DNA from: Deltaproteobacteria bacterium
GTDB taxonomy: Bacteria > Myxococcota > SpSt-1050 > JACRCP01
Reading direction: 5' to 3'
DNA: 64,000 nucleotides
Assembly (NCBI GenBank): GCA_016218965.1
Contig: JACRCP010000399.1
Location: 4,710 to 68,709, forward strand
Part shown: positions 30,527 to 45,028 of the stretch, in pieces
Layout of the letters: every line of letters starts with the position of its first letter
Numbering within the stretch: position 1 is the first letter of the stretch
Notes under the pieces: generated by a model
Told to the model about the DNA's origin: nothing
The model's input: the letters and a program-made list of their open reading frames with translations, nothing else
Databases searched by the model: none
Program-made: the position numbers and the translations under genes

Positions 30527-30724
30527 TCCAGACGAATCACGCCCAAAGAGTTGATATCCGGCACAAGTGTTTATGGCCGCCCAGACGACGCGGCAAGTCT
30601 ACCCCCGCAGGGGGGAAAAGACAAATCCGTCGCCGCCTGCGGCTGCCGACCGGCGCGGCTGGGTCCCTGTTGCTTGCGGAGCCGCGGGCGGGTAAGATTG
30701 GGGCGTACGATCGGTCAGGGGAAC

Positions 30725-32275
30725 ATGAGGGTCAGCCGATTCATCCCGGGCGGGCTTCTTGCCGTGACAGTCGCGGCGGGCGGGTGTGCGTTTTCGCCCG
30801 ACGTCTCGGGGAGCCTTCTGGACTGCTCGGAGAAACCCTGCCCCGAGGGGTGGGTCTGTCCGGAGTCCGGCGAGAAGGTCTGCGTGCAGGTTGAGGTCCG
30901 ATCGGACGGCGGCGGGTTCTCAGATCGGCCCGATCTGTCCGATCGGACCGATCCTGACGCCGCCGCCCCGGGTGACGGCGGCGCAAAACCCGACACCGGC
31001 CCCAAAAACTGCACGGACGACTGCCCGGGCCTCGGGATCACCGAATGTACGGGCGAGAAGTCGTACCACCTTTGCGGCGAGTTCGACGGCGACGGCTGCC
31101 TCGAGTGGGGCGAGACGGTGCAGTGCCCGTCGGGCTGCTTGGGCGGGGTGTGTTCGGGATGCACCGTCGAGTGCACCGGGCGCGAGTGCGGCGACGACGG
31201 CTGCGGCGGTTCCTGCGGGACGTGCCGGAGCACGCCGCCGCCCGAGTGCGCCGACTCCCGCACGCTCAGGACCTGGAACCCCGACGGCACCTGCGGCAAC
31301 GGTGCGTGCAGCTACTCGTACACCGACAAGGAGTGCTACTTCGGCTGTGCAAACGGGAAGTGCGGCGACTGCACGCCCTCGTGCGCCGGAAAGGAGTGCG
31401 GCGACAACGGGTGCGGCGAGTCGTGCGGCGAGTGCGTGTCGCCCCCGGCCAACGCCTGCGCCGGGTCCACCCTGCGCGAGTACGACCGCACCGGCGCCTG
31501 CGGGAGCGGAGGGAAATGCTCGTACGCCTACACCGATCGCGCGTGTCCCAACGGGTGCGCAAACGCCCAGTGCATCAACTGTACCCCGAGCTGCAACGGC
31601 AAGGACTGCGGCCCCGACGGGTGCGGCGGCGACTGCGGGTCCTGCGGAGCGCACGAGTCGTGCATCAACGGCTCGTGCACGTGTTTTTCGGGCTACGGCG
31701 ACTGCAACGGCGGTTCCGACGGCTGCGAGACCGACCTCCGATCGGACGACTTCCACTGCGGGGGCTGCGGGGCGGGCTGCAACGACCACGCCTACTGCGG
31801 CGGGAGCGAGTGCCACTGCGAGCCGGACTGGGGGGAATGCAACGGGACGTTCTCGGACGGCTGCGAACGCCAGGTCGGCAACTATTCCAACAACTGCGCA
31901 AGTGCGGAGGACCCCGGGAGCGTCTGCGGCGACGACGGGTCGGACCGGGCGGGACCGGTTTCGGGGTTCGAATCCAAGTGGTTCAAGGTGCGCGTCAGGG
32001 AGTGCAGCAACTGGGACAGCAACCTCTCGGTCTACGCGACCCTCCAGTCGCCCCCGGGGGCCGACTACGACCTGTACCTCTACCGTCTATGCGGCGGCCA
32101 GCCCAAGGCGAGCTCGACGCTCGGGCCGGGCGCGACCGACAGCGCGCACGAGTACCAGAGCGACGACTGGGGAAACGACGACGACTTCGACCTGTATGTC
32201 GAGGTCCGCTTCAAACCCGGCAGCGGCTCCGATTTGTGCGGCTCGTGGACGCTCAACGTGTACGGGAACAAGTAG
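30725..32275 (+). CDS. Cys-rich repeat lipoprotein (myxo-type CxxxC repeats) with C-terminal PPC-like beta-sandwich domain
   Basis: Lipoprotein signal LLAVTVAAGGC|A. Repeats of type CGxCTPSCxGKxCGxDGCGGSCGxC. C-terminal region FESKWFKVRV...YDLYLYRL. Confidence 0.65.
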   Translation: MRVSRFIPGGLLAVTVAAGGCAFSPDVSGSLLDCSEKPCPEGWVCPESGEKVCVQVEVRSDGGGFSDRPDLSDRTDPDAAAPGDGGAKPDTGPKNCTDDCPGLGITECTGEKSYHLCGEFDGDGCLEWGETVQCPSGCLGGVCSGCTVECTGRECGDDGCGGSCGTCRSTPPPECADSRTLRTWNPDGTCGNGACSYSYTDKECYFGCANGKCGDCTPSCAGKECGDNGCGESCGECVSPPANACAGSTLREYDRTGACGSGGKCSYAYTDRACPNGCANAQCINCTPSCNGKDCGPDGCGGDCGSCGAHESCINGSCTCFSGYGDCNGGSDGCETDLRSDDFHCGGCGAGCNDHAYCGGSECHCEPDWGECNGTFSDGCERQVGNYSNNCASAEDPGSVCGDDGSDRAGPVSGFESKWFKVRVRECSNWDSNLSVYATLQSPPGADYDLYLYRLCGGQPKASSTLGPGATDSAHEYQSDDWGNDDDFDLYVEVRFKPGSGSDLCGSWTLNVYGNK

Positions 32276-32327
32276 TTGGTCTTCCCCACCATGGTCTTTT
32301 CAGCCGACTTCAACCCGGCCTTCCGGC

Positions 32328-33086
32328 TCAGATGAAACGGCCGGCGGGCAGCACCGAACGGAAGGGTTCCAGGTAGCGGGTTTCCACGGGGCGGCGGCTG
32401 ATGTGCATCCCGGCGAGTTCGCGCCCGAGTTGGTGGTCGCCGAAGCGAAGCTCGGCGGTGGGTTTCATCCGGCGCAGCGAAACGCCGAGCTGCACGGAAA
32501 TGGGGGTCAGCATGAGCTTGCCGTCCTTGATGCTGAATGTGCTGTGCACGCGGGTCTCGTCGAACTCCTTCCGGGTGTGATCCAGGGCAAGCTCCACGAC
32601 GGTCTTTCCGCCCTCGGCGAGTGTGCACTGCGTGCGGCCGCCCTTCTCCTCGAAGCCGATCTCGGCCACGAACTTGGGATAGCCCCAAAGCTCCCGTCCG
32701 GCGTCGCGGGCGATCCGTGTGGTCACCGGCAGGTGCCAGACGTAGACCCCGGAGTGTCCCAGGTACTTCTCCAGGAGCGGTGCCGCCCACGGCAGGTTCC
32801 ACCAGGCGTCGTACAGGCAGGGAAAGCTCAGCGAGACCTCGTTGTAGAGGCCGATGGAGGTCGCGCGGTACTCGAAGCAGTTGACCGCCAGCAACGATTT
32901 CCCTCCCGTCAGCCTGAAGGGCGAGAGCCTTGTCGAAGGAAGCCTTCTTTGCACCTCCTCGGTCGGCAGGGCGAAGACCGCCTGCAGGCAGCGGCAATCG
33001 GTGTAGCGGATGGGCAGGGTCACCTCCCCCGCTGTCACCCGGTGATGGGTCTCCTGTAAATTGGTGAAGATGTCTTTCATGGTCAT
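32328..33086 (-). CDS. acetoacetate decarboxylase (ADC) family protein
   Basis: Length 252 aa with an ADC-family pattern. ATG at 33086 overlaps the stop of the upstream ACAD gene. Confidence 0.65.
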   Translation of the reverse strand: MTMKDIFTNLQETHHRVTAGEVTLPIRYTDCRCLQAVFALPTEEVQRRLPSTRLSPFRLTGGKSLLAVNCFEYRATSIGLYNEVSLSFPCLYDAWWNLPWAAPLLEKYLGHSGVYVWHLPVTTRIARDAGRELWGYPKFVAEIGFEEKGGRTQCTLAEGGKTVVELALDHTRKEFDETRVHSTFSIKDGKLMLTPISVQLGVSLRRMKPTAELRFGDHQLGRELAGMHISRRPVETRYLEPFRSVLPAGRFI

Positions 33087-34273
33087 CTCCCGGCGGCGAT
33101 CTCCTCGGTGATCGCGATGCGGTTGATCTCGTTGGTCCCTTCGTAGATCTGGGTCAGCCGCGCGTCCCGCAGGCACTTCTCAACCCAAAAGTCGCGCATG
33201 TAGCCGTAGCCTCCCAGTATCTGGATGGCCTCGTTTGCGACGAAGACCGCGGTGTCGCTGGCGAACACCTTGGCCATGGCGGCGGACTTCATCGGCGGGG
33301 GAAGGCTGGTGTCGGCCAGATGGCAGGCTCTACGCACCATCAGCCTGGCCGCCTCGACGCGGATGACCATCTCGGCGATCTTCTGGGACACGGCCTGGTG
33401 CTCGATGATGGGTCTGCCCGCTTGCCTGCGCTCCTTGGCGTAGGCGACGGCGAGATCGAGAGCGCGCTGGGCGATGCCGACGGCGATGGCCCCGACCGGG
33501 CCGCGGCTCGCCGCGAGGGTTGTGCGGTTGATGAACCAGCCCGTCTTCTCCTTGCCCACGCGATTTTTCTTGGGCACACGCATGTCCTCGAAGATGAGTT
33601 CCGCCGCCGGGCAGGCGCGCTGGCCCATCTTGTCCTCGACCCTTCCCACCGAAAAGCCTTTCATGTCCGGGGTGACCAGGAAGCAGGTCCAGGCTTTGAT
33701 GCCCTCAGCCCGGTCGACGGTGGCGAAGACGGTGATGTAGCTTGCGACTGATCCGTTGGAGATGAACACCTTGCGGCCGTTCAAGACGTATTCGTCTCCG
33801 TCGCGGATGGCAACCGTCGAGAGGGCGGCGTGCTTCGAACCCTGCTCGTCCTCGACGTCGGAGCCGGCACCGGGCTCGGTGATGGCAAAGGCGGCTAGCT
33901 TGGGCCGCTCGGCCTTCTCCGCGGCCACGATGTCGCGGTAGACCCGTTCTTTCAGCTCGTCGCTGCCGGCAATGAAGAGGGGAACGAGCCCCAGGCCGTG
34001 GGCGCCGAAGATGTTGGCCACGCCGGCGCACGCCCAGCACAGCTCCTCCATCACCAACCCAGAGGCGCGCACGGCCTGTCCAGAACCGCCGTACGCCTCG
34101 GGGATGGTCATGGAGAGCAACCCGACCTCGCCCCCCTTGCGCACCAGGTCCCAGGGAAAGCGGTCTTTCGGCGCGGCGTCGAGCTCGAGCGCACGCGGAT
34201 CGATCTCGTTTCTGGCGAAATCCCGGGCGAGTTTTTTGATAGCCTGCAATTCACCGGGAAGAGTCTCGTCCAT
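33083..34273 (-). CDS. acyl-CoA dehydrogenase family protein
   Basis: ACAD N-terminal, middle (AFAITEPGAGSD) and C-terminal (QILGGYGY, catalytic-base region YEGTNEI) motifs. Length 396 aa. Confidence 0.9.
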   Translation of the reverse strand: MDETLPGELQAIKKLARDFARNEIDPRALELDAAPKDRFPWDLVRKGGEVGLLSMTIPEAYGGSGQAVRASGLVMEELCWACAGVANIFGAHGLGLVPLFIAGSDELKERVYRDIVAAEKAERPKLAAFAITEPGAGSDVEDEQGSKHAALSTVAIRDGDEYVLNGRKVFISNGSVASYITVFATVDRAEGIKAWTCFLVTPDMKGFSVGRVEDKMGQRACPAAELIFEDMRVPKKNRVGKEKTGWFINRTTLAASRGPVGAIAVGIAQRALDLAVAYAKERRQAGRPIIEHQAVSQKIAEMVIRVEAARLMVRRACHLADTSLPPPMKSAAMAKVFASDTAVFVANEAIQILGGYGYMRDFWVEKCLRDARLTQIYEGTNEINRIAITEEIAAGR

Positions 34274-34276
34274 GGC

Positions 34277-35257
34277 TCACCTCTCCTTCTGCTTGAGCTT
34301 TGCCTTTTCGGCCCGTCGCCTCTTTTGCGCCTCGACGAAGCTCTGGAACGCCTCCTCGCTGTTGTACCGGTAAGTGAAGCTGACCTCGCGAATAAGTCTG
34401 GAATTGTCCATTGTACAGGAATAGCGCAGGTAGGGAATGATCCCGGGCGGGATCTCATTTCGATCGCCGAGCTTCCACATGAACCAAAGCGCGGTCCACA
34501 TGGCCACGCGGGGCAGATACCGGACCGAATATCCGATGCGCTCCGCCTGCTCGGGCACAGACAGCATCCCGCCCCCGGCAAGGTTGTAAGCCCCCGGACT
34601 CCCGCCGAACACGAGCTGCTCGACGGCCCGCGCAACGTCTTCCTCGTGGATGTACTGGAAGCGCGCATTCGACCCCCGGATGATGATGATCGGGTTCCAG
34701 CGCATCAGTCGGGACATGAAGTTCGACACGTTGGGCCCGAATATGATGCAGGGTCGGACGATCTTGAAGTCGACGTCCGGATGCTCCCGAACGTACTCAC
34801 GGACCATCCCCTCGACCTCGACCTTCTCCGTCGCGTACTGGTAGCCCGCGTTCGCCCGCAGCGGCATGTCCTCGCGCAGAAACTCCGGGTTGTCCGGGTG
34901 GGCGCCGTATGCCGTCGCCGAGCTCGCGACAAGCAACGACTTCACCCTGGCCCGATCGCAAGCCCGAAGGAAGGCCCTGGTCCCCCCGATGTTGATCTCT
35001 CTCATGCGCCGCGAGTCGCGCATGGGGTTTACGACGAACGCGAGATGCACCGCCCGCTCCACCTTCTCGCGGACAAAGATCTCGTCGAGACCGCCCCTGG
35101 AGATGTCATGCTCGACGAAACGAAGCTTGGAGCCGGACTCCAAAGGTGCGCTCACGTCCAGCCCGATGATCTTTTCCACCTCGGCCCGTGCATCCAACAG
35201 TTTCAATAGCGAGCGGCCCAGGTAACCCGACGATCCGGTGACAGCAACGCAGGTCAT
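34277..35257 (-). CDS. NAD-dependent epimerase/dehydratase family protein (extended SDR)
   Basis: VTGSSGYLG Rossmann motif. YxxxK-type catalytic region. Length 326 aa. GGAGGA RBS. Confidence 0.85.
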   Translation of the reverse strand: MTCVAVTGSSGYLGRSLLKLLDARAEVEKIIGLDVSAPLESGSKLRFVEHDISRGGLDEIFVREKVERAVHLAFVVNPMRDSRRMREINIGGTRAFLRACDRARVKSLLVASSATAYGAHPDNPEFLREDMPLRANAGYQYATEKVEVEGMVREYVREHPDVDFKIVRPCIIFGPNVSNFMSRLMRWNPIIIIRGSNARFQYIHEEDVARAVEQLVFGGSPGAYNLAGGGMLSVPEQAERIGYSVRYLPRVAMWTALWFMWKLGDRNEIPPGIIPYLRYSCTMDNSRLIREVSFTYRYNSEEAFQSFVEAQKRRRAEKAKLKQKER

Positions 35258-35282
35258 CCAATCCTCCGGTCAGCCAAGGCCG

Positions 35283-35310
35283 CCATTATAGTCGCAATCG
35301 CGGGAAGTTG
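35283..35310 (-). promoter_or_regulatory. sigma70-like promoter (TTCAAC-16-TATAAT) for epimerase/ACAD/ADC operon
   Basis: Read on the minus strand, ~18 nt upstream of the RBS/ATG at 35257. Confidence 0.4.
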
Positions 35311-35751
35311 AAGGCCGCTTTTAATTGCCGTCGCCTGGGACAACCGACCTGGCAGTCGCCGACAGCGGCGCGTCGTATCGAGCCGTCACCGACCGGAGAA
35401 GGCGAAAGGGCTCAGTCAAACGCAGCTGACCGTTCCCCGCTGCCGCCCAACGTCTTGCGTCTGCGTGTGTCGTCATTCCGCCTCCGAATCACAGTACGGT
35501 TCTGCAACTGCCGTATGTGTCATCAACTGACAGTGTCTGACCCCCAAGGCCCCCCTTGAGAATCCCTCCGCGCCGTGCTAGAGACCGCGCATGGGCCCCC
35601 GGAGGCGCGCCTTGCGGTAATCTGGTGCGTTGCGTGCAGCCGGGTTTCAGTCCGGAGTCCGGACTGTCTGTCGTTTCCACGGCTATCACCGCGACTTGTG
35701 CCCCCCGGACGGGTCGCCAATACTGGACCCGGAGAAACAACGCGGACACCC

Positions 35752-36648
35752 ATGCACGTGCCCGTCACCACATCCGCCCGGCCCGCCGCCCGACTCGTCG
35801 TCGCGCTCGTCGCCGTTGTGTCGGCGGGGGGCCTATCGTGCGGGGACAACGGATGGGGGGACGAGGGTGGGAGCGGTGCGATCGCGGCGCGGGACGGCGG
35901 CACGGCGGCGGACGGGGGGTCAGGCCCCCCCGGGGGCCCCTTGCTGTTCGTCGTCATGAACTTTTCCGACGAGGCGGCGTTTCTCAACGCGGCCCTGAGC
36001 GCCGATGATCTCGTCGGCGTGTATGCGGCGCATGGCGCGTTCCTGTCGCTCGTGACGCGGCCTGGCCGGGCGCTCACCGGGCCGTCGATCCCCGCGCTGC
36101 AGGAGGCGCTGCTCGACCTCGGCGGGACGGCGCTCGACTACCTCGTCTACAACCCGGAGATCTACGACACGCACGGCACACCTCAGGGGGAGCTCGACGA
36201 CCCCCCCGGCGCGGTCGCGGCGCTGCGGCCGCTCACGGACGCCCTTGGGTCCGGGCTCGGCTTTTTCCCCGACCTCACGCTGCTGGAAACCTATGGGGCG
36301 GCCGTGGCGCCGCTTGTGGACCTCGCGGGGATCCAGGCCCAGCGGTATCAACTCCGCCCGGACGAGCTCCGCGCCGCCGTCGCGGCCGCGGCCGAAGTCT
36401 ACCGGGGTGCGAACCCAGCCGTGAAAATGTTCGCGCAGCTCTTCATGGCCCCGCCCGTTTACGGTGACGATGGAAAGCCGGTCCGGGACGCGAACGGGGA
36501 GAAGGTGTATCAGGCCGTCAGCGCCGAAGAGGTGATCGACGCGATCAACCTCATCACCGACCTCGTCGACGGCGTCGTCATCGCCCATTCCGAGGAGACC
36601 GAACCGGAGTTGACGCGGTTTCTCGGCCTGCTGCGCCCCGCCAGGTAG
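35752..36648 (+). CDS. hypothetical lipoprotein
   Basis: Signal peptide with lipobox (LVALVAVVSAGGLSC|G). Coding-like composition. The antisense 348-aa ORF is Arg-rich and was rejected. Confidence 0.5.
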   Translation: MHVPVTTSARPAARLVVALVAVVSAGGLSCGDNGWGDEGGSGAIAARDGGTAADGGSGPPGGPLLFVVMNFSDEAAFLNAALSADDLVGVYAAHGAFLSLVTRPGRALTGPSIPALQEALLDLGGTALDYLVYNPEIYDTHGTPQGELDDPPGAVAALRPLTDALGSGLGFFPDLTLLETYGAAVAPLVDLAGIQAQRYQLRPDELRAAVAAAAEVYRGANPAVKMFAQLFMAPPVYGDDGKPVRDANGEKVYQAVSAEEVIDAINLITDLVDGVVIAHSEETEPELTRFLGLLRPAR

Positions 36649-37050
36649 TGGCGCACCGGCTTTCCTCCGTGGAGTGCGGCGGCTTGACGCCGCCTTGTCT
36701 CGCCGGGGCTTGACCCGGCGACCGCGCCCCCGACGCCCGTCCCGTCCCAACCGCGCTTGGCACCGTGCGACGCCCTTGGGCCTTCGATGCGGCCCGGTCA
36801 ACCCGGGGTGACGGCGGGTCGCGGCTTGACCATGCCGAGGCAACGCCGCCGGCGTTCTTCGAGTCGCCGGGCAGAAACCGCGATGGAAGTTCCTTTCGAC
36901 CGACCCGGTAGACTCGTTTCGAGCGGCGCTCGTCCATGCTTGCCCGTTGTTGCCGGTCATTCGCAACCCGGCGTCGACCCTGCGGCGTCCTTGACACCGC
37001 TCCGACCCGGGGATACCGTTCTCTTGGGAACCTCAATGGAGGTGGTTGAA

Positions 37051-37299
37051 ATGACGGATCGCCAACTTCTTGAACGGATCAGGATCGACCCCAAGGTCAT
37101 GGTGGGGAAGCCGGTGATCAAGGGCACGCGCCTGACGGTCGAGTACATTTTGAACCTCCTTGCCCACGGCACCAGCGAGGAGGCCATTCTCAACGAGTAC
37201 CGAGGTCTTGCTCCCGAAGACATCCAGGCGTGTCTGCTGTTTGCATCCCGTTCACTTGACGATACCACCTTTATGCCGATGGTCGCGGAGATGCCCTGA
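37051..37299 (+). CDS. DUF433 domain protein (antitoxin-like partner of DUF5615)
   Basis: IDPKVMVGKPVIKGTRLTVEYILNLLAHGTSEEAILNEYRGLAPEDIQACLLFA matches the DUF433 consensus. GGAGGTG RBS. Confidence 0.75.
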   Translation: MTDRQLLERIRIDPKVMVGKPVIKGTRLTVEYILNLLAHGTSEEAILNEYRGLAPEDIQACLLFASRSLDDTTFMPMVAEMP

Positions 37300-37446
37300 G
37301 TGCGTTTCCTCGTCGACGAGAGCACGGGGCCGAGTGTTGCCCTGTGGCTGCGCGGACAAGGGCACGAAGTGTTTTCGATCTACGAAAATGCCCGCGGGAG
37401 CGAGTTTCGGGCCTTCGAGTTCTTGACGGCCGGAGGCCGAGGCTGA
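37300..37446 (+). pseudogene. truncated DUF5615 (PIN-like toxin partner of DUF433); only ~35 N-terminal residues conserved
   Basis: The GTG start overlaps the DUF433 stop. VRFLVDESTGPSVALWLRGQGHEVFSIYENARG matches DUF5615 N-termini. It then diverges into EFRAFEFLTAGGRG and stops after 48 aa, at the direct-repeat copy 1. Confidence 0.55.
37404..37432. repeat. direct repeat copy 1 (gtttcgggccttcgagttcttgacggccg)
   Basis: Matches 38779-38813 except for a 6-nt gagttc duplication in copy 2. Confidence 0.7.
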
Positions 37447-38778
37447 AGGCTGACAGCTTCTTTTGAGTTTTCATGGCCCCGTCTCCATTCCGCTTTCCAA
37501 GGCCCGGTTACTTCTTCCTCAACGTCCTGGCCGCAAGGAGCGCGACAATGGCGATCGTCACGCCTGCCCCAGCCAGCACCCAAACCGTCTTTCGCCCTGC
37601 CCCCTCGTCCTTCTTGACTCCGTGTTCCTGCGGTCGCCCGGCATCGCCGGCATCGCCGCCCCCGTCTTTTCCCCCTCCCGTGGTTCCTCGTTTTTCTTCG
37701 GGTGTTCCCGACGGTTCTTTCCCGCCATCTCTGGTTTCGACATTTTGCCTGCGGTGTTCCCGAGCTTTTTGGTCCTCTTCTACTAACTGTCTCATGCGAA
37801 TAGCTTCCGACAGGTCTACAGTTCCCCTCAACTCGTTGAGTCTGTTTTCCACGTATTCTCTCACAACACCCCATTCGGTTTCCTTCGCCAACTCCTCCAA
37901 CTCCCGTTCCGTGAACTGGTGTGTTTCCAAGTCTTTGCACACAATGAACACGTCACGGCAGTTGTTTTTCGTCGCATCAATTACTTCGTCCATTGTTTTG
38001 ATGTTGATCCTCGACAGTCTGATAGCGCCTTCACAGAGCGCCCTCAAGATCTCCTCGTCACCCCGGGCGTGCATGTATCGCTCACTCGGATCGAGATCAC
38101 ACTCAGCAGCGCCCCTCTTGAGAACATCGACGATCGTTCTTTCTTTGTCGTCACGAACCACTGCCGTATAGTATCCGGACCTGATGTCTGCAAACTGCCA
38201 ACACGCCTCACGTTTCAGGGAGTTTCGAAACACACGTTCATCGATCTGTCTTTCTTTGAACCTCGCTATCAGTCGATTGAGGGCATCGTAGCAACGCGAC
38301 AAGGATTCCAAGTCGAGAGGCGGTTTCGGAAGTACGATCTCCCTTTCGGCGTCAGCATCTGCAACGCCGGTCGATACGACGATTGCCAAAGCACAAATAA
38401 ACGTTGGTTTGCCGAAGCGTGGAAAAGGAATCATAGTTTCCTCTCGTAGTTCTTACCCGGTGCCCCCCAGTCATGGTCATTCAACGTCCCTGTCCCCAAG
38501 GACTTCCCATCCGGCCCCTTTTTTTGCCACGCCTTGGCAGCGCATTCGGCGACGTCTTCCTCGTCGCCACGCTTCGACACCGGATACGGAACTTTGCCAA
38601 TCCAATTGACACCCAGGATGGTGTTGCTGAAATGCATGCCCATCGGTTTTGTGGGAAAATTCGCTGCGTTGCACTGCGTCCGTCGACAGGAACTTTCATG
38701 GGGGGTTTTCCCCCTCCAGAGGGAGCATGCGGGAGCATAAAGGAAGCGGCGGGGGATTGCAAATCCGGTTTCGGGCCG
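37433..38778. mobile_element. putative inserted low-GC segment (~1.35 kb) flanked by imperfect direct repeats; no integrase/transposase recognised
   Basis: Local GC is ~50% against ~68% in the flanks. It carries one minus-strand CDS. It lies between DR copies and truncates the DUF5615 gene. Confidence 0.35.
37508..38434 (-). CDS. hypothetical secreted protein with C-terminal TM anchor and basic tail (low-GC cargo gene)
   Basis: Signal peptide MIPFPRFGKPTFICALAIVVSTGVADA. C-terminus is G/D/K-rich followed by TVWVLAGAGVTIAIVALLAARTLRKK. GAGGAAA RBS. Confidence 0.55.
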   Translation of the reverse strand: MIPFPRFGKPTFICALAIVVSTGVADADAEREIVLPKPPLDLESLSRCYDALNRLIARFKERQIDERVFRNSLKREACWQFADIRSGYYTAVVRDDKERTIVDVLKRGAAECDLDPSERYMHARGDEEILRALCEGAIRLSRINIKTMDEVIDATKNNCRDVFIVCKDLETHQFTERELEELAKETEWGVVREYVENRLNELRGTVDLSEAIRMRQLVEEDQKAREHRRQNVETRDGGKEPSGTPEEKRGTTGGGKDGGGDAGDAGRPQEHGVKKDEGAGRKTVWVLAGAGVTIAIVALLAARTLRKK

Positions 38779-38813
38779 GTTTCGGGCCTTCGAGTTCGAG
38801 TTCTTGACGGCCG
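38779..38813. repeat. direct repeat copy 2 (gtttcgggccttcgagttcGAGTTCttgacggccg), embedded in a run of three GGTTTCGGGC units (38766-38826)
   Basis: Seen directly. Confidence 0.7.
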
Positions 38814-38860
38814 CGCGGTTTCGGGCGAAGATTGGCCGCCCGTATGAGAGAGGAGAACAC

Positions 38861-40159
38861 GTGAAGCCCGAAGCCAGGATCGGCGAGATCGCGAAGTTCG
38901 AGGGGAAGGAAGTGACGCTCTGCGGCTGGGTGTACAACATCCGTTCGTCGGGGAAGATACACTTCCTGCTTCTGCGCGACGGGTCGGGGGTCATCCAGTG
39001 CGTGGCGGGAGCAAAGGACGTTTCGCCCGGGACGTTCGAGGCGATGAAGTCTCTTACGCAGGAGTCGTCGGTCATCGTCACCGGGTCCGTGCGCGCCGAA
39101 AAAAGGGCGCCGCACTGCGGTTTTGAGCTGACGCTAAAGGACGTCAAGATCCTCCAGATTGCCAAGGACTACCCCATCTCGCCCAAGGAGCACGGGCCGG
39201 CCTTTCTGCTCGACAACCGGCACCTCTGGCTCCGCTCGCTTAGGCAGGTCGCCATCATGAAGGTGCGCAACACCATAATCAGGGCCATCCGCGACTTCTT
39301 CGACCAAAACGGTTTTCTGCTCATAGACTCCCCCATCTTCACACCGGCGGCGTGCGAAGGGACGAGTACGCTTTTCGAAACGAACTACTTCGAAACCAAG
39401 GCGTATCTTACGCAGTCGGGCCAGCTCTACAACGAGGCCACGGCCATGGCGTTTGGCAAGGTCTACTGTTTCGGCCCCACATTCCGCGCCGAAAAGAGCA
39501 AGACGCGCCGGCATCTCACCGAGTTCTGGATGGTCGAGCCCGAGATGGCGTTTTACGACCTTGGTGACACCATGGACGTGTGCGAGGACTTCCTCTGCTT
39601 TGTCGTCTCGCGCGTGCTCGAACGCAACCGCGCGGACCTCGACGTGCTTGAGCGTCCGGCCGGCCCGCTCGAAAACGTCAGGAAACCGTTTCCCCGGATC
39701 ACGCACGCCGAGGCGATTGCGGTCCTCAGAAAGGCCGGCGCCGAGATCGCCGACAACGCCGATTTTGGCGGCGACGAGGAGACCATTCTCACGAAGCAGT
39801 TCGACCGGCCGATCATGGTCCACCGCTACCCCGCCGAGGTCAAGGCGTTCTACATGAAAGGGGACCCCGCCGACCGCTCGAAGGCGCTGTGCGTGGATGT
39901 TCTTGCGCCCGAGGGGTACGGCGAGGTCATCGGAGGCGGGCAGAGGGAGGACGACCTCGACACGCTCGTAGCCGCAATAAAAAAACACGGCCTCCCCGAG
40001 GAGGCTTTCACGTGGTACCTCGACCTGCGCCGCTACGGGTCGGTCCCGCACAGCGGGTTCGGCTTGGGCGTAGAGCGCACGGTGGCGTGGCTCTGCGGCC
40101 TGCACCACGTGAGAGAAACCATTCCGTTCCCGAGGATGATGGAGCGCGTCACCCCATAG
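38861..40159 (+). CDS. asnS: asparagine--tRNA ligase
   Basis: GTG start with a GAGAGGAG RBS. Class II motifs [21 protein letters not shown] and [13 protein letters not shown]. Anticodon-binding OB N-terminus. No GAD insertion, so AsnRS type. Confidence 0.88.
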
Positions 40160-40165
40160 GCCAAG

Positions 40166-40549
40166 ATGATTTGCCCCAAGTGCGGCAGCGACAAGGTCTA
40201 CCCCTCGCGGCTGAAGAGCGATAATGAGTTCTTCATCGTCATCATCACCAATTTCGACCCGTACCGTTGCATGACCTGCCGGCGGCGGTTCTGGCGATTC
40301 AGGTGGCGGCCCCGGCGGAAGCAGGGCGGCGGTTTCGGTTTCCCCGACGTGGGCGGCGAGCTCAAGCGCCTCTCCCGGTCGATCAAGGAGTTTTGGCCGC
40401 AGAACCGCGGGCGGATGATCCCGCTCGTCCTCAAGATGCTGCTCATCGGCGCGCTCGCGGTGGGGATAGCGACGATCATCGGGTACTCGACCGGAAAGAT
40501 GAAATCCCAGCCTGATTTCGCGAAACCGACGGAGGCGGCGAAAAGGTGA
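40166..40549 (+). CDS. zinc-ribbon (CPxCG...CxxC) small membrane protein
   Basis: MICPKCGS ... CMTCRR followed by a C-terminal TM helix. Length 127 aa. Confidence 0.5.
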   Translation: MICPKCGSDKVYPSRLKSDNEFFIVIITNFDPYRCMTCRRRFWRFRWRPRRKQGGGFGFPDVGGELKRLSRSIKEFWPQNRGRMIPLVLKMLLIGALAVGIATIIGYSTGKMKSQPDFAKPTEAAKR

Positions 40550-40796
40550 GGGTGCGTTTTGCGAACCCGGGCCGCCTGCCGCACGGACGCGACCCGGTTG
40601 CGCCGTAGCGGCGTTTTCGGGCCTCACTGGGCGTCCGGACGGGCGCCAACAACGGACGGCGCGTCCGAAAACGATGCGGAGGCGCGGCCGGGGAGCAAGA
40701 CGTGCGGCCCCCGGGACTATTCAACGCACCTCCGCAAGAACGCGGGTTGAGGACGGGAGTTTGCGTTTCGTCCTTCGGTTCTTTATAGTCGCCGGC

Positions 40797-41675
40797 ATGC
40801 ATCCTGTTTCGCATACGCGAGCACAGGTCATCGCGTTCATCGCGGCGGCTCTGGCATTGCCCGCGACCATGAACGCAGCCGAGGCTCCGACGCTAATCGT
40901 GTTCGATCTGGTCCCCGAAAAGGGCGTTGAACGCGGCGCGGCCAACCTGCTCACCGAGATCGTCATCAACGAAGTCAGCCGGCTCGGCCGATACACGGTC
41001 ATCGGCCAGAAGGACCTCGACAAGATGCTGACGTGGGAGCAGAACAAGCAGCTCAAAGGCTGCAATGACACGAGCTGTCTAATCCAGATAGCGGGGGCGA
41101 TGGGCGCCAGCTTCTACATGGAAGGGTCGCTCGGCGTCATGGGCGACCAGTTCGTCGTCACGCTCAAGCTCATGGACGCGCAGAATGTGAAGATCCGGGC
41201 GCGGGACACGCTCATCATCGAAAAAAACGAGAGCGTTTTGGTGAAAGCGATGCCGGGGCTTGTCCAGAAAATCGCCTCGCCGGTCGAGGCAAAAACGGCG
41301 CCGACGGCGACGGCGGCCAAGGAGCCCGCACCCGCGGTGGAGAAACCGGCGCCAGGCGACGGCCGCGGCGCGTATCGGCTGGCCGGCTGGATTGCCGCCG
41401 GCACGGGGCTCGCGGTGCTCGGGGCCGGCGTCTACTTCTGGCTGAACGCGGGGACCACATACAGCGACCTCGCCGCCGGGAAATACCCGGGGGCGGACCG
41501 AGGTGACAAGATCGACGAGGGGAAACTCAACGACAAGCTCGGCCTCGGCGGCATGATCGGAGGAAGCGTCACCGCGGCGCTGGGCGGGGTCCTCTTGTAC
41601 TACGGCTACTCCGGCGGGACGGTCGCCGTCGGGATGGACCGCGGCGTGTCGCTCCGCGTCGGGGGGACGTTCTGA
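40797..41675 (+). CDS. secreted hypothetical protein (CsgG/LpoB-like N-terminal fold, Gly-rich hydrophobic C-terminus)
   Basis: Signal peptide MHPVSHTRAQVIAFIAAALALPATMNA. Resemblance to the CsgG/LpoB N-terminal alpha/beta domain is by pattern only. Confidence 0.5.
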   Translation: MHPVSHTRAQVIAFIAAALALPATMNAAEAPTLIVFDLVPEKGVERGAANLLTEIVINEVSRLGRYTVIGQKDLDKMLTWEQNKQLKGCNDTSCLIQIAGAMGASFYMEGSLGVMGDQFVVTLKLMDAQNVKIRARDTLIIEKNESVLVKAMPGLVQKIASPVEAKTAPTATAAKEPAPAVEKPAPGDGRGAYRLAGWIAAGTGLAVLGAGVYFWLNAGTTYSDLAAGKYPGADRGDKIDEGKLNDKLGLGGMIGGSVTAALGGVLLYYGYSGGTVAVGMDRGVSLRVGGTF

Positions 41676-42568
41676 TGCGACGCCTTGTGACGCGAAGCAT
41701 GGCACTCGGTGCAGTGGCGCTCACAGCCGTGCTCGTGCTTGCGCTCTCGGCATGCCGCGACTTTGACCAGTTCCGCGAAACCGACGCCGGGACCGACGCG
41801 GGCACAGTCGAGATCACGGGTCCGTGCACCCCCGATTGTCCCGCGGTCGACATGGTCACCGTGCCGGCAGGCGAATACCTGATGGGGTGTAACGACCTCA
41901 TAGATATCGACTGCGAGGACCACGAGCGCCCCGGGCACAAGGTGACGGTTTCGGAGTTCATGATAGACCGGACCGAGCTCACGGTGGCCGATTACGACCT
42001 CTGCGTCAAGGCCGGCGAATGCCTCCCGCCCGATCCCAACGAGGGCTGCAACTACGGGGTCGCGGGACGCGATCGGTATCCGGTGAACTGCGTGACGTGG
42101 CAGCACGCCGACCGGTATTGCAAGTGGGTCGGGAAGCGGCTTCCCACCGAGGCCGAGTGGGAGAAGGCGGCGCGGGGCAAGGACAGCCTGAAGTACCCGT
42201 GGGGGAACACACCGGCGGCGGACTGCGACTACGCGGTCATGTACACGGAGATCGACGGCGGCGGCGTGAACGGCTGCGGGAGGGGCGGGCTCTGGCCTGT
42301 GGGAAGCAAGCCGAAAGGCAAAAGCCCCTACGGCTGCGAGGACATGGCGGGAAACGCCGGCGAGTGGGTCGCCGACTGGTACTCGGCGGACTACTTCGCG
42401 CAGTCTCCCAAGACCGGCCCGACCGGCCCCGCCACCGGCACCGAGAAGGTGATCAAGAGCGGCGCGTTCGTCGACTCGGCTGCGCGCGTGCGGACCTCAT
42501 TCCGGCACCACACCAGCCCCAACGACGCCCCCGACTACGCAAGCTTCCGCTGCGCATTTTCCCGTTGA
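41675..42568 (+). CDS. formylglycine-generating enzyme (SUMF1/FGE-sulfatase) family lipoprotein
   Basis: Lipobox LALSAC. FGE-sulfatase fold signature (GxWEWT-like RLPTEAEWEKAARG, ...GNAGEWVADWY, RGG...S). TGATG overlap with the upstream gene. Confidence 0.85.
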   Translation: MRRLVTRSMALGAVALTAVLVLALSACRDFDQFRETDAGTDAGTVEITGPCTPDCPAVDMVTVPAGEYLMGCNDLIDIDCEDHERPGHKVTVSEFMIDRTELTVADYDLCVKAGECLPPDPNEGCNYGVAGRDRYPVNCVTWQHADRYCKWVGKRLPTEAEWEKAARGKDSLKYPWGNTPAADCDYAVMYTEIDGGGVNGCGRGGLWPVGSKPKGKSPYGCEDMAGNAGEWVADWYSADYFAQSPKTGPTGPATGTEKVIKSGAFVDSAARVRTSFRHHTSPNDAPDYASFRCAFSR

Positions 42569-42708
42569 CGCGGTCGTCCGCGCGTCCGGGCGGGATCCGC
42601 TCCCGCAAACGGCGGAATCGGACCTTCGCGCTCCCCGGGGCTTACGCATAATCCACTGAAATCACCCGTTTTTTGATGTGGCACGGCGCTTGAAGTTCAC
42701 GCCGCGCC

Positions 42709-43152
42709 ATGAAGTTCCGCCTTGAGCGAATCCGTCACATCGAACACCTCCGTGCCGAGGTGTCGCGGCGCTCGCTCGCGCACGCGGCGGCCGACGAGAG
42801 CGCGGCCCGCGCGGCGGCAGGCGAGTCGCGGAACGCGTTTGTCGTAGCTGGCGCCGAGCGCGAGGCGGCCATACGGCCCGGCGGGCCGGTCACGGACCTG
42901 GCGCTTTTCGAAAGGACCCTGTTGGCCAACCGCGTTGACAGAGCACGCGACACCCTAATGGCCGGGCTTTCCAGCCACGCCGCAGCCGAAAAGAAACTTG
43001 ACGGCGCCCGCGTCGAGTATTCGGCAAAACGCAGGCGAGAGGAAGGCTTCGACCGCCTCCGCGAACGGTTCGTCCTTCAAAAAAAAAGAGACGCCGAAAA
43101 GGCCGAGGAAGGGGACACAGATGATCTCTTCAGTTCAACGCGTCGCGGTTGA
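42709..43152 (+). CDS. FliJ/SctO-family type III export stalk protein
   Basis: Length 147 aa. All-helical coiled coil with FliJ/YscO-like charge pattern. It is first in the T3SS-ordered operon. Confidence 0.55.
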   Translation: MKFRLERIRHIEHLRAEVSRRSLAHAAADESAARAAAGESRNAFVVAGAEREAAIRPGGPVTDLALFERTLLANRVDRARDTLMAGLSSHAAAEKKLDGARVEYSAKRRREEGFDRLRERFVLQKKRDAEKAEEGDTDDLFSSTRRG

Positions 43153-43651
43153 GAAGATGGCGGGCGCCGGCGCCCCCTGCGGGCCGGGGCCGGCCACGGC
43201 GTTCGGATTGCTTCTCGGCAGGCACCGCCGGGATCTTGAACCGCCGACGGAACTGGATCCTTTGCGGAAGGTGCCGTCCGCATCCGGTGGAGGGTTCCGG
43301 CCCGAATCGCTCGCGGCCGCCAATGGTGGGATACCGGTCGTGCCCCACGCAGTCGACGTGAAAAACTCGATCGAGTGCTCTTCTCCCATGCCGGTAGCGG
43401 CCGCCGTCGAGGTGCTGGCCGTTGAACGCGCGATGGACGCGGTGCGCTCTTTCGGGCCGGTCCAGTGCATGAGGCTCGACGTGGGCGGCGGCACTGTCAC
43501 GGTGCGGGCCGGCGCATGCGGGAGCGGCTTGTCGGTCGAGGTGACAACCGATTCGCGGGTCAGCCCCGAGACGCGGCGCGCAATAGTTGCCGCGGTCCGG
43601 CGCCGGGCGCCCGGCGCCGCCGTGACCGAGCGAAGAAGGGGCGGCAGATGA
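43121..43651 (+). CDS. FliK/SctP-like protein (hook/needle-length control C-terminal T3S4-like domain)
   Basis: C-terminal MRLDVGGGTVTVRAGACGSGLSVEVTTDSRVSPETRRAIVAAV resembles Flg_hook/T3S4 domains. The start is uncertain, with a 32-nt overlap if ATG 43121 is used (alternative ATG at 43157). Confidence 0.4.
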   Translation: MISSVQRVAVEKMAGAGAPCGPGPATAFGLLLGRHRRDLEPPTELDPLRKVPSASGGGFRPESLAAANGGIPVVPHAVDVKNSIECSSPMPVAAAVEVLAVERAMDAVRSFGPVQCMRLDVGGGTVTVRAGACGSGLSVEVTTDSRVSPETRRAIVAAVRRRAPGAAVTERRRGGR

Positions 43652-44691
43652 CCCGCGACGATCTGCAAATCCACAACGCGTGGTGCGCGTTTGCCGCTTC
43701 GGAAGGGTTTGCCGGGCTTGTCGAAGCCATGTGCGCACGCCTCTCGAAAACGCTCGGGACGCCGGTCGAGCTCCGGACCGCCGTCGTCGCCGTCGTCGAG
43801 AGCGCCCGAATCGAGAAGCTCTTCGCCGCGGGGCAGTTCGCGTTCGCCATCGAGGCGGGCGCGGGCAAGCGCGCGGTCGCGGTCGCCTCACGCCTGCTCC
43901 CGGCCCGCATGCTCAAGCTGCTCTCGGGCTCGGACAAACTCTCGGTCTCGCACTCGTTCTGCCGCGCGGCGATCGAGCTTTTGCTCCTTGACGCGGCCGC
44001 GGCCATCTCGGAGACGACCGGGACGAACATCCTTGTGAGTCCCGCGCCCTCGGGCGCCGCTTTCGACGCCGACGCCTTCGTACAGCTCCGCGTGGCCGTG
44101 CGCATCGGCGAACCGGCAGGGGACCTCGCGCTCTTTGTTCCCGCGCGGCTGCCTCCCGCGGGGGACCGGTTTCCGGCGTTTCTGCGCCGGATTCGGATTC
44201 CGGCAAACGCGGGGTTGGAGATCGAACCGCTGGAGGTCGAGCGGCTCGAAGGTTCCATGCCCGGGGACGTGTTGAACCTGTCGGCGGCCGGCACGGGACC
44301 CCGGGCCGTTTTGAGGCTTGAACTCGGCCGCGAAACGGCAAGGGAGTACCGAATCGACTTGGACACGTTCCTGAACGACGGGACCATCAAGATAGACGGG
44401 GGACCGATGGAGGCGACAATGGCCGAGGTGGACACGAAATCTGCTTCAGACGCACGGATGGGCACCAATCCGGTTTCAACCGGGCGTTTCAGGCTCCCCG
44501 TGAGGCTTGAGATCCTCGCTTTTGAAATCCCGGCGGCGGATCTCGAAAAACTCGCCCCCGGGCAGGTGCTTGAGACAAAGGCCGAGCCGGGCCGCGCCGT
44601 AAAAATGTACGTGTGCGGCGAGCTTTTTGCCCAGGGGCACCTTGAACACCTGGAGGGTTTCGATGGATTCCGCATTGAGAAGATTTTCTGA
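43648..44691 (+). CDS. type III secretion cytoplasmic-ring protein SctQ/FliN family (two SpoA-like domains)
   Basis: C-terminal SpoA/FliN domain VRLEILAFEIPAADLEKLAPGQVLETKAEPGRAVKMYVCGELFAQGHLEHLEGFDGFRIEKIF. A second SpoA-like segment lies upstream. Confidence 0.7.
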   Translation: MTRDDLQIHNAWCAFAASEGFAGLVEAMCARLSKTLGTPVELRTAVVAVVESARIEKLFAAGQFAFAIEAGAGKRAVAVASRLLPARMLKLLSGSDKLSVSHSFCRAAIELLLLDAAAAISETTGTNILVSPAPSGAAFDADAFVQLRVAVRIGEPAGDLALFVPARLPPAGDRFPAFLRRIRIPANAGLEIEPLEVERLEGSMPGDVLNLSAAGTGPRAVLRLELGRETAREYRIDLDTFLNDGTIKIDGGPMEATMAEVDTKSASDARMGTNPVSTGRFRLPVRLEILAFEIPAADLEKLAPGQVLETKAEPGRAVKMYVCGELFAQGHLEHLEGFDGFRIEKIF

Positions 44692-45028
44692 AACGGCCGC
44701 GGCAAGGCTCGGGCGGGGCCGGGCGCTTGCCGTGGTCTGCGCGGGGGTTGCGCTGATTGCGGCGGCGGCCATCGGCGGTTCGGGGGCCGGCGTGCTCGCG
44801 GTCCTCGGGGCGTGCGCGGTTTGGGCATGGATCGCCCGCCGGAAGGCCGCGGCCGATTCCACCGGTGAACCGGGACTGAGACTCATGTCGTCGATTTCAC
44901 TCCCCGGCGGCGCCCGAATTCACGAGGTCGCGTGCGGCAGCCGCCGCGTCCTTGTCGGGACGCATGGCGGGAGGCTCTGCGTAATCGACAGGACCGAGGA
45001 ACGCGGCGAGGAGGATCCCGATGAGTAG
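44663..45028 (+). CDS. FliO-like small membrane protein
   Basis: Single TM (ALAVVCAGVALIAAAAIGG) followed by a FliO-like motif (EVACGSRRVLVGTHGGRLCVI). Its stop overlaps the fliP start. Confidence 0.45.
   Translation: MDSALRRFSETAAARLGRGRALAVVCAGVALIAAAAIGGSGAGVLAVLGACAVWAWIARRKAAADSTGEPGLRLMSSISLPGGARIHEVACGSRRVLVGTHGGRLCVIDRTEERGEEDPDE

Follow-up and report, generated by a model that had tools for sequence, protein, structure and literature searches.

How did a segment of low GC content, framed by two copies of a short direct repeat, come to lie between a toxin-antitoxin (TA) module and the asparagine--tRNA ligase gene asnS? The question was raised by a stretch of 64,000 nucleotides of a deltaproteobacterial contig (the window; all positions are counted from its first letter), for which an initial annotation had proposed that an insertion between the repeats destroyed the toxin gene. 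The sequence does not show that such an insertion caused the loss of the toxin. In the best explanation, to which we give a probability of roughly 0.55, an accessory islet specific to this strain lies at a site prone to rearrangement directly upstream of asnS. Two or more separate events would have built it, and it lacks any machinery of its own. We regard the locus as a product of ordinary wear and tear in a genome, not as a new system.

The left part of the locus keeps a bicistronic arrangement in the order antitoxin, then toxin. The DUF433 (COG2442) gene (37051..37299, forward strand) encodes a protein of 82 aa, predicted to act as an antitoxin or to bind DNA, and was intact, as first described: it covered profile positions 1-56 of the 56 in Pfam PF04255 (E=5.9e-22, 77.7 bits, above the cut-off). 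Its homologues, also of 82 aa and 73-81% identical, were counted in the thousands and came from many phyla. The PDB entry 2GA1 was a weak match, and DUF433 alone had a match in PHROGs, to a family of unknown function. The second gene (37300..37446, forward strand) is a truncated DUF5615/PIN_10 toxin gene. Of its 48 codons, only codons 1-34 were homologous to the family, and codons 35-48 were read from the left repeat copy (R1) and the insert. The stub matched positions 1-31 of the 110 in the DUF5615 profile (19.7 bits, cut-off 23.8) and positions 1-35 of the 84 in PIN_10, below the gathering score; the intact partner in relatives matched DUF5615 positions 1-109 of 110 (E=1.6e-23, 83 bits). The length of 48 aa and the match of about 35 residues given in the initial annotation stood, while the overlap with DUF433 did not, the stop TGA (37297-37299) being followed directly by the toxin GTG at 37300. 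In relatives, this junction reads TGATG. The third-position GC of DUF433 (0.73) and of the toxin stub (0.74) were both under the host level.

The end of the toxin homology was located in two ways. The full-length partner from relatives aligned in tblastn to stub residues 1-33 only (67% identity, E=7e-12), with toxin homology ending at 37399-37403, a few nucleotides from the start of R1, and nucleotide homology to the modules of five relatives ran from 37051 and ended at 37366-37399, just before R1. In the same search, toxin residues 34-115 (about 82 codons) were absent from the whole 64-kb window, so that a remainder of the toxin beyond the insert was rejected and the view of DUF433 as an orphan antitoxin-like gene was borne out. 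Because the stub matches only 31 of 110 profile positions and stays below the cut-off, the module is, judged by its sequence, a TA remnant and not a working pair; a stub without more than 70% of the domain cannot be a nuclease. A consensus scan called a terminator-like hairpin with a T-run just past R1 (37439..37470, forward strand). It may end the DUF433 transcript, although its fold was no better than that of shuffles (z=-1.1).

The missing codons bear directly on the proposed insertion. When the insert and one repeat copy are removed, what is left is DUF5615(1-34)-R-asnS, which is still truncated, and as the missing codons lie nowhere in the window, the truncation needs a separate or a non-conservative deletion. 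Moreover, one identical DUF433 protein was found on four contigs, in which the toxin was apparently intact in one, frameshifted in another, and carried different internal deletions in the remaining two. The toxin has decayed independently in three of the four (L087, L089, and L090); in this subfamily it decays on its own, with no insertion. The locus is thus an example of a TA toxin that decays while its antitoxin survives.

DUF433 proteins have been predicted to be antitoxins of PIN toxins (PMC2701414; PMC5499597), and the DUF433/COG4634 modules were predicted by Makarova et al. 2009 and classified by Matelska et al. 2017; toxicity and its neutralisation are, for this family, functions known from prediction only. 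The present remnant resembles these DUF433-COG4634/DUF5615/PIN_10 modules in its full-length DUF433 and in its first 33-34 toxin residues, 67% identical to the intact partner, and differs from them in that its toxin is cut after codon 34. It is also of the type of VapB45-VapC45 (Rv2018-Rv2019) of Mycobacterium tuberculosis, with the antitoxin before the toxin and a start codon that abuts the stop; Rv2018, however, has an extra winged-HTH domain that DUF433 here does not. Stand-alone DUF433 genes, ssr2784a and ssl5025, are on record in Synechocystis sp. PCC 6803 (PMC4963859). Like them, and like the DUF433 genes on L087, L089, and L090, the gene studied here is predicted to have no functional toxin partner. 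Unlike in the Synechocystis orphans, a toxin stub can still be recognised here together with its breakpoint, and it is fused to duplicated asnS upstream DNA.

That fusion is made by the direct repeat. R1 (37404..37432) is a 29-bp sequence, GTTTCGGGCCTTCGAGTTCTTGACGGCCG, that codes for (E)FRAFEFLTA(G), so the breakpoint codons EFRAFEFLTA had been assigned correctly to it. As also described before, it recurs upstream of asnS as R2 (38779..38813), which consists of the 29 bp with a 6-nt duplication, an extra TTCGAG. The 29-mer had no further match in the window at up to three mismatches and none in 100 shuffles, and self-BLAST of the window returned the R1/R2 pair only. Each 19-nt exact half of the repeat, taken alone, was at the edge of chance (a length of 19 nt was reached in 3 of 200 Markov simulations), but the two collinear halves are well beyond it. 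The annotation had named a common REP-like repeat as an outcome that would speak against it. Such an interspersed repeat was rejected, the sequence being unique in all data scanned, namely the 64-kb window of the genome, metagenome contigs, and viral contigs: no true copies were present in JGI metagenome contigs and none in viral contigs, and the 16 metagenome matches to a 19-mer of the repeat, none with similar flanks, are chance. What tells the copies apart is a pair of perfect micro-tandem arrays (38765..38803; TRF) that lie within R2 or next to it and occurred at R2 only: an 11-nt unit repeated 2.2 times (38765-38788) and TTCGAG repeated 2.5 times (38789-38803). They look like slippage products. 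The motif GGTTTCGGGC occurred three times, in copies 11 nt apart.

The right half of the repeat belongs to asnS. This gene (38861..40159, forward strand), a conserved anchor, starts with GTG and matched Pfam tRNA-synt_2 at E=2.8e-70; its homologues have 429-433 aa and the same start. In the closest relative (L081/L082; AsnS 92% identical in amino acids, 84-86% in nucleotides), homology resumed at 38800, inside R2 at GTTCTTGACG, a -35-like box, and continued through the asnS start, and the repeat's 14 rightmost nucleotides (GTTCTTGACGGCCG) stand at the onset of this homology to the relative's asnS upstream region. Therefore, R1, which has a second copy of the TTGACG box at 37423-37428, holds a copy of asnS promoter-proximal DNA and not toxin sequence. 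We infer an asnS promoter at 38804..38832 (forward strand), with TTGACG (38804-38809), a spacer of 17 nt, and GAAGAT. This putative promoter is conserved with the relative (L081 3346-3402), its -10 element is weak, and it was uncalled by the consensus scan. The 15 nt that form the left half of the repeat (GTTTCGGGCCTTCGA) had no counterpart in the closest relative; with one half matched there, the comparison cannot show that the whole 29 bp were native before the insertion.

The interval between the repeats was of another composition. Its GC content was 55.1% and that of the cargo coding sequence 53.8%, against 69.5% in the left flank (36000-37050), 62.3% in asnS, and a window mean of 64.8% (sd 3.3, 1-kb windows). 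The description of a low-GC segment held, and the check by windowed GC and tetranucleotides agreed with it, since the lowest-GC 1-kb window of all 64 kb was 37751-38750 (52.8%) and tetranucleotide deviation reached its maximum at 37801-38800 (z=3.5); the figure of about 50% for the interval did not hold. The third-position GC of the cargo gene was 0.59 versus 0.82-0.90 in host genes. In composition, the cargo operon is foreign.

One gene had been reported in this interval; there are probably two. The cargo gene (37508..38434, reverse strand) encodes an orphan protein of 308 aa, and its strand, secretion, and C-terminal transmembrane (TM) anchor were as annotated. Hydropathy gave an N-terminal hydrophobic segment at about residues 10-27 and a C-terminal one at 283-306, followed by RKK. 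From the N-terminus onward, a signal-like segment is followed by a helical domain, a linker rich in Gly and charged residues, a TM helix at the C-terminus, and the RKK tail. Six cysteines lie in the helical domain and a seventh (C14) within the signal-like segment. The protein is thus predicted to be secreted and anchored in the membrane at its C-terminus. An ORF of 70 aa (38431..38643, reverse strand) lies upstream of it, overlaps its start in ATGA, has coding-like GC by codon position (0.54/0.45/0.69), and was also called on the independent Logan contig of run SRR12113407. It had no family match and probably leads the cargo operon, which is transcribed away from asnS.

The search for relatives of the cargo protein, which had been suggested as a check, returned very little: itself only among 5.8e9 clustered proteins, and two remote homologues among 1.84e9 representatives, one of which, the paralogue P0243, is in the same genome bin. 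It had no Pfam, NCBIfam, PADLOC, PHROG, or PDB match; a PDB profile search with the family gave noise only (E>0.1); tblastn against plasmids and phages had no match, and the family was not found in viral contigs. The single-sequence AlphaFold model (mean pLDDT 47.7) was too poor for a fold search. The cargo thus belongs to a family of three members, all predicted to be secreted and C-terminally anchored. Because a paralogue is present in the same bin, the cargo DNA may be lineage-specific and have moved within the genome rather than being foreign. For annotation, the 48-aa ORF should be treated as a pseudogene fragment, the 70-aa ORF added, and the cargo described as a three-member family.

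The whole region upstream of asnS is variable. When 30000-46000 was compared by blastn with L081/L082, 30687-32274 corresponded to L081 1547-3124 (86%) and 38800-40545 to L081 3346-5098 (84%), and in place of 32276..38799, a segment of 6.5 kb, the relative has 221 unrelated bp. According to Pfam, the left side of this segment holds ADC-like, acyl-CoA dehydrogenase, and epimerase genes and one for an unknown 298/357-aa protein, all four with third-position GC like that of the host (0.82-0.86); the TA remnant comes after them, and then the cargo operon. Each of four more distant relatives has a different gene upstream of asnS, making five genes in five relatives, while downstream synteny was kept, with flagellar-type export genes in the relative. 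The comparison supports accessory DNA at a variable site, an example of how small orphan genes gather where a site next to an essential gene is prone to rearrangement. A 24-nt patch common to the relative's intergenic region and window positions 35624-35647 was also seen and set aside, as it did not extend into an alignment. An uninterrupted DUF433-DUF5615-asnS arrangement, which the initial annotation had expected in close relatives, was found in none of them in the genome, metagenome, and protein collections, which also yielded no relative closer than L081/L082. The genome contig scan with AsnS gave nothing beyond 68% identity, a metagenome scan for the conserved pattern upstream of asnS had 0 matches, and AsnS, the cargo protein, and DUF433, each looked up as an exact protein, led to no contigs; P0243 was also unrecorded.

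These comparisons weigh on the idea of an old, immobile arrangement, in which the repeats and GGTTTCGGGC would be regulatory sites of divergent cargo and asnS promoters and of the end of the DUF433 operon, and the low GC would mark a young, lineage-specific orphan family. The cargo paralogue in the same bin, the conservation in the relative of GGTTTCGGGCG, which lies between the -35-like box and the start codon, and the 11-nt spacing of the motif copies would all suit it. Yet the closest relative is without the whole segment, R1 lies within a gene stub with no obvious target for a regulatory site, and a recent duplication is favoured by the 100% identity of the repeat halves, given that the flanks differ by about 15% between relatives. 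We therefore consider great age very unlikely.

A further reading, which we take to be very improbable, is an assembly artefact, in which a low-GC piece of another genome or replicon was joined into the contig at the repeats. The contig is metagenome-assembled, and the sole independent assembly (L092, an identical Logan contig from SRR12113407) spans 37623-38770 and crosses neither repeat junction, as an artefact would allow. But the exact stretches shared by R1 and R2 are of at most 19 nt, which is below the smallest k-mers that assemblers are known to use, and the copies would therefore not be merged in a k-mer graph. The same host-derived sequence would also have to be present at both ends of a foreign piece, the micro-duplications at R2 set the copies apart, and the cargo has its paralogue in the same bin.

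The accessory islet is best explained by the following history. A module of the widely mobile kind, with a DUF433 antitoxin and a DUF5615 toxin (COG2442 with COG4634, a Mut7-C-type PIN-like nuclease), would first have been present. Its toxin gene would then have lost everything past codon 34, leaving a stub fused to the DNA just upstream of the asnS -35-like box and the antitoxin gene intact as an orphan DNA-binding protein. In a second event, the 1.35-kb low-GC operon, with the 70-aa ORF and the 308-aa protein, would have entered that junction and duplicated 29 local bp, through recombination of a circular or linear piece across the sequence or through a long staggered break. The R2 copy would keep the asnS upstream region intact, and R1 would supply the last 14 codons of the toxin stub. 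Later, R2 would have gained its slippage duplications of 11 nt and 6 nt. Since no relative with an empty site (DUF5615 stub-R-asnS) was found, this two-step order is one that we infer; the closest relative is without the insert, but also without the 6.5-kb left flank and the left 15 nt of the repeat.

A single non-conservative event, in line with the initial annotation, could have had the same outcome: a double-strand break in DUF5615 followed by illegitimate recombination or template switching, in which the 3' part of the toxin and the old spacer were deleted, the cargo was captured, and 29 bp of asnS-proximal DNA were copied as filler. The toxin breakpoint at 37399-37403 falls at the left end of R1, the neighbours scanned from 27.9 to 42.6 kb include neither a recombinase nor a transposase, and the R2 region, with GGTTTCGGGC three times and the 11-nt and 6-nt arrays, is a patchwork of short duplications, of a sort typical of slippage or template switching. 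It would take deletion, capture, and a clean 29-bp duplication at once, which the sequence does not demand, and the toxins of relatives decay with no insertion at all. Only an ancestral allele would separate it from the two steps, and we regard it as unlikely.

Small islets and integrated elements with att-like direct repeats exist, including integrase-less elements that are mobilisable in cis, and two features of integrative elements were present here, the flanking 29-bp direct repeats and the host-deviant composition. The islet upstream of asnS resembles att-flanked ones in its direct repeats of tens of bp around atypical DNA, in a repeat that extends over the end of a conserved feature of the host, which one copy leaves intact, and in DNA that is missing in the nearest relative. 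Unlike them, it lacks an integrase, a tRNA target, a second copy, and a free form; its target is promoter-proximal and not the 3' end of a gene, and the insert measures only 1.35 kb. In agreement with the initial annotation, neither a recombinase nor a transposase was found among the neighbours scanned from 27.9 to 42.6 kb. The window had no tRNA or tmRNA genes and no Rfam family at the gathering score (none at E<=1 in 36600-38900), PADLOC found nothing, and the ends of the R1-R2 interval, as read from the sequence, had no terminal inverted repeats.

It is highly improbable, though conceivable, that the 1.35-kb operon is a recombinase-less cassette mobilised in trans, whose 29-bp att core overlaps and regenerates the asnS -35-like region, a promoter-targeting analogue of integration at tRNA 3' ends. 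If the repeat were indeed the attachment site of such a cassette rebuilding a host promoter, the locus would be more important; nothing found requires that. A possible second recognition feature would be an imperfect inverted repeat of 41 nt (36869..36909 and 38673..38713), which brackets the TA remnant and the cargo together and which the islet history does not cover. Its arms matched at 31 of 41 positions, a score not reached in 300 simulations (maximum 28), and its core, ATGRAAGTTCCTKTCGACSGAC, is paired at this locus only and unique in the window. We also considered whether 36869-38713 is the remnant of a non-autonomous transposable cassette with these terminal repeats, moved in trans. The strength of the pairing and its bracketing of exactly the lower-GC genes would fit. 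Against this, the arms have no adjacent target-site duplication and no transposase, the window holds no second copy, the arms share only 76% identity and the pairing does not continue beyond them, and R2 lies outside the right arm, so that the direct repeat, whose positions the pair does not share, would be left unexplained; there is little chance that this account is right. Folded as RNA, the hairpin past R1, the 3' end of the cargo gene, and the two arms were not clearly above shuffles, the best being the left arm (z=-2.2). Since an ATG is present in each arm and the short leaders are similar, a duplicated 5' leader or a shared operator would explain the pair just as well.

We found that the DUF433 gene (37051-37299) encodes the whole Pfam domain PF04255 (E=5.9e-22), so it is intact, as the initial annotation had stated. 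The partner toxin had been described as cut short, and this was also evident. Its ORF (37300-37446) begins directly after the DUF433 stop codon, has 48 aa and covers positions 1-31 of 110 in the DUF5615 profile and 1-35 of 84 in PIN_10, below the Pfam cut-offs of both. An intact partner toxin of the subfamily was reconstructed from related contigs (about 115 aa, DUF5615 positions 1-109, E=1.6e-23) and searched for in all six reading frames of the window. Its residues 1-33 aligned to 37300-37398 with 67% identity (E=7e-12), and the remaining 82 codons were absent from the entire window. The nucleotide homology of five related modules spans 37051 to 37366-37399; thus, the toxin homology ends a few bases from 37404, where the left copy (R1) of a 29-bp direct repeat starts. 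DUF433/COG2442 is a predicted DNA-binding antitoxin for PIN-type toxins (PMC2701414), and COG4634/PIN_10 proteins are Mut7-C-type PIN-like predicted toxins (PMC5499597); the antitoxin role of DUF433 and the toxin role of DUF5615/PIN_10 at this locus are predictions that follow these studies. Stand-alone DUF433 genes are on record in Synechocystis (PMC4963859).

Four related contigs all encode one and the same DUF433 protein (P0129). The toxin beside it was apparently intact on L088, where the contig end cuts the gene, and frameshifted on L090; on L087 and L089 it has lost internal segments that differ between the two. The four contigs thus form a natural series in which the toxin decays and the antitoxin is kept. 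Judging from them, the DUF5615 toxin of this subfamily decays readily on its own.

The surroundings of asnS (38861-40159) were compared among relatives. No close relative was present among species-representative genomes, in which the top AsnS match had 68% identity. A large protein collection contained AsnS proteins at 92, 86, 81, 81, 80, and 78% identity, and contigs were fetched for five of these six relatives. In the closest one (L081/L082, from JGI metagenomes), positions 1547-3124 of L081 correspond to 30687-32274 of the window at 86%, and the alignment restarts at 38800 (L081 3346), continuing through asnS and the downstream genes. The 6.5 kb between them (32276-38799) has no counterpart in L081/L082, where 221 unrelated bases are found instead. 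The left part of this segment carries genes for an ADC-like protein, an acyl-CoA dehydrogenase, an epimerase, and an unknown protein, with host-like third-position GC; the right part consists of the toxin-antitoxin remnant, followed by a cargo operon. The gene upstream of asnS differs in each relative (L081-L086): carB, proB, rpsB, an aspartyl-protease-like gene, or a gene for an unknown 513-aa protein. Synteny in this lineage thus breaks in the DNA upstream of asnS, whose ancestral state is not polarisable. Flagellar-type export genes downstream of asnS are syntenic in L081-L084, and an RHH_1 gene pair lies just downstream of asnS in L086. A 24-nt patch (GGTGCGTTGC.TG.A.CCGGGTTT, 21/24 identical) is shared by 35624-35647, an intergenic region within the 6.5-kb segment, and L081 3139-3162, in the asnS-upstream spacer of the relative. 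The patch may have been left over from the ancestral spacer; no extension to a longer alignment between the window and L081 was obtained.

The 29-mer of R1 (37404-37432) is GTTTCGGGCCTTCGAGTTCTTGACGGCCG, and it does recur before asnS with the 6-nt duplication reported earlier, an extra TTCGAG in the right copy (R2, 38779-38813). No further match to GTTTCGGGCCTTCGAGTTCTTGACGGCCG with up to three mismatches exists in the window, so the repeat is not REP-like within these 64 kb. Searches of viral contigs and of contigs from JGI metagenomes gave no true copies either. One exact 19-nt repeat in 64 kb is borderline (3/200 simulations), but chance is not a plausible source of two 19-nt halves in collinear order. 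Misassembly of the contig at the repeats is unlikely because the longest exact stretch common to R1 and R2 is 19 nt, shorter than the smallest k-mers that assemblers are known to use. The homology to L081 restarts within R2, at GTTCTTGACG, and continues over GGTTTCGGGCGAA-ATTGGCCGCCCGTAT and the ribosome-binding site up to the GTG start of asnS. Thus, asnS-proximal host DNA makes up the right 14 nt of the repeat, and R1 includes another copy of it, directly after toxin codon 34. These 14 nt include a -35-like TTGACG, which marks a putative asnS promoter with a weak -10 that a consensus scan did not call. The left 15 nt have no counterpart in L081; GTTTCGGGC inside them echoes GGTTTCGGGCG, which is conserved and lies after the -35-like box and before the start codon. 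What sets R2 apart from R1 is a pair of perfect micro-tandem arrays (TTCGAG x2.5 and an 11-nt unit x2.2), which look like later slippage. We regard the repeat as duplicated asnS upstream sequence and not as a mobile-element end seen elsewhere.

Between the repeats, a gene for a 308-aa protein (37508-38434, minus strand) is preceded by a 70-aa ORF (38431-38643, minus strand) that overlaps its start by ATGA and whose GC pattern resembles that of coding DNA. This ORF, without a family match, was absent from the initial annotation and is added here as a probable second insert gene. The two overlapping genes make the insert a complete small transcription unit directed away from asnS. The ORF was also called on a Logan contig (L092, run SRR12113407) that is 100% identical to 37623-38770 and ends short of both repeats, so the insert interior is independently confirmed and the repeat junctions are not covered. 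Both ends of L092 adjoin perfect micro-tandem arrays (37638-37658, 38765-38803) whose periods are 9, 11, and 6 nt, a hint that copy number varies in the population or that coverage drops there. The 308-aa protein matched only itself among 5.8 billion clustered proteins, and when 1.84 billion representatives were searched in full with HMMER, two remote homologues emerged. P0242 (324 aa, Poribacteria MAG) has the full architecture in common with it: the N-terminus is a hydrophobic signal-like segment, the helical domain contains conserved cysteines, the linker is rich in Gly and charged residues, and a C-terminal TM helix is followed by a basic tail. The alignment of P0243 (212 aa, HY897_09860, from the same MAG as the window, on a contig of 4.4 kb) starts at the helical domain, its N-terminal part missing; it is a cargo paralogue elsewhere in the bin with a nearly identical C-terminal anchor. 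No match to the cargo protein was found in Pfam, NCBIfam, PADLOC, PHROG, or PDB, and no relatives on plasmids, phages, or viral contigs; its single-sequence structure model was too poor for use.

The window comes from a 74.8-kb metagenome-assembled contig labelled 'Deltaproteobacteria bacterium' (locus tags HY897_*) and has 64.8% GC. The GC content was 55.1% in the R1-R2 interval, 53.8% in the cargo CDS, 57.4% in DUF433, 62.3% in asnS, and 69.5% in the left flank. The GC contrast described earlier therefore stands, 37751-38750 having the lowest GC of any kilobase in the window, but the value then given for the interval was too extreme. Third-position GC was 0.59 in the cargo gene and 0.82-0.90 in native-looking genes, and tetranucleotide deviation peaked at 37801-38800 (z=3.5).

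If an insertion between direct repeats was conservative, deleting the insert and one repeat reverses it. In silico, this deletion gave the order DUF433, DUF5615(1-34), R, asnS, in which the toxin is still truncated. Since the 82 codons are missing even then, either a prior cut and fusion or one non-conservative event is required. The earlier interpretation of the locus as an integration scar is supported in part: the DNA is accessory, it lies at a variable site, and it carries a dead toxin beside an orphan antitoxin. The data do not, on the other hand, demonstrate that the toxin was killed by the insertion. We prefer the order in which the toxin would first have been cut and fused to asnS-proximal DNA, and the low-GC operon would have arrived later at this junction, because ordinary events suffice and the toxin decays readily by itself (L087, L089, L090). 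A single non-conservative event, cutting the toxin as the operon arrived, would also account for the missing codons and is less preferred. Every component of the locus is of a known kind.

As noted initially, no recombinase is present: neither recombinase nor transposase was detected among the neighbours scanned, from 27.9 to 42.6 kb, and the window has no tRNA genes or Rfam matches. An imperfect 41-nt inverted pair (36869-36909 and 38673-38713, 31/41 positions matching) encloses DUF433, the toxin stub, R1, and the cargo operon together. Its core ATGRAAGTTCCTKTCGACSGAC occurs in the window only at these two sites, and this match level was reached in 0/300 simulations. No target duplication flanks the pair, and its positions differ from those of the direct repeats. 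Possible origins are a terminal inverted repeat that has decayed, an operator shared by both sites, or a leader sequence duplicated in inverted orientation. Between an unknown 298/357-aa gene and DUF433, 400 bp (36649-37050) have 67-74% GC without a convincing ORF, and the left edge of the lower-GC zone lies at ~36900-37000. A candidate DUF433 promoter was seen by eye (TTGACA at 36991, a 17-nt spacer, TACCGT). The strongest tetranucleotide outlier of the window (z=4.4) is 58080-59630 (plus strand), which encodes a Cys-rich repeat protein (516 aa, N-terminus signal-like) and contains an exact 20-nt internal repeat (58562/59111).
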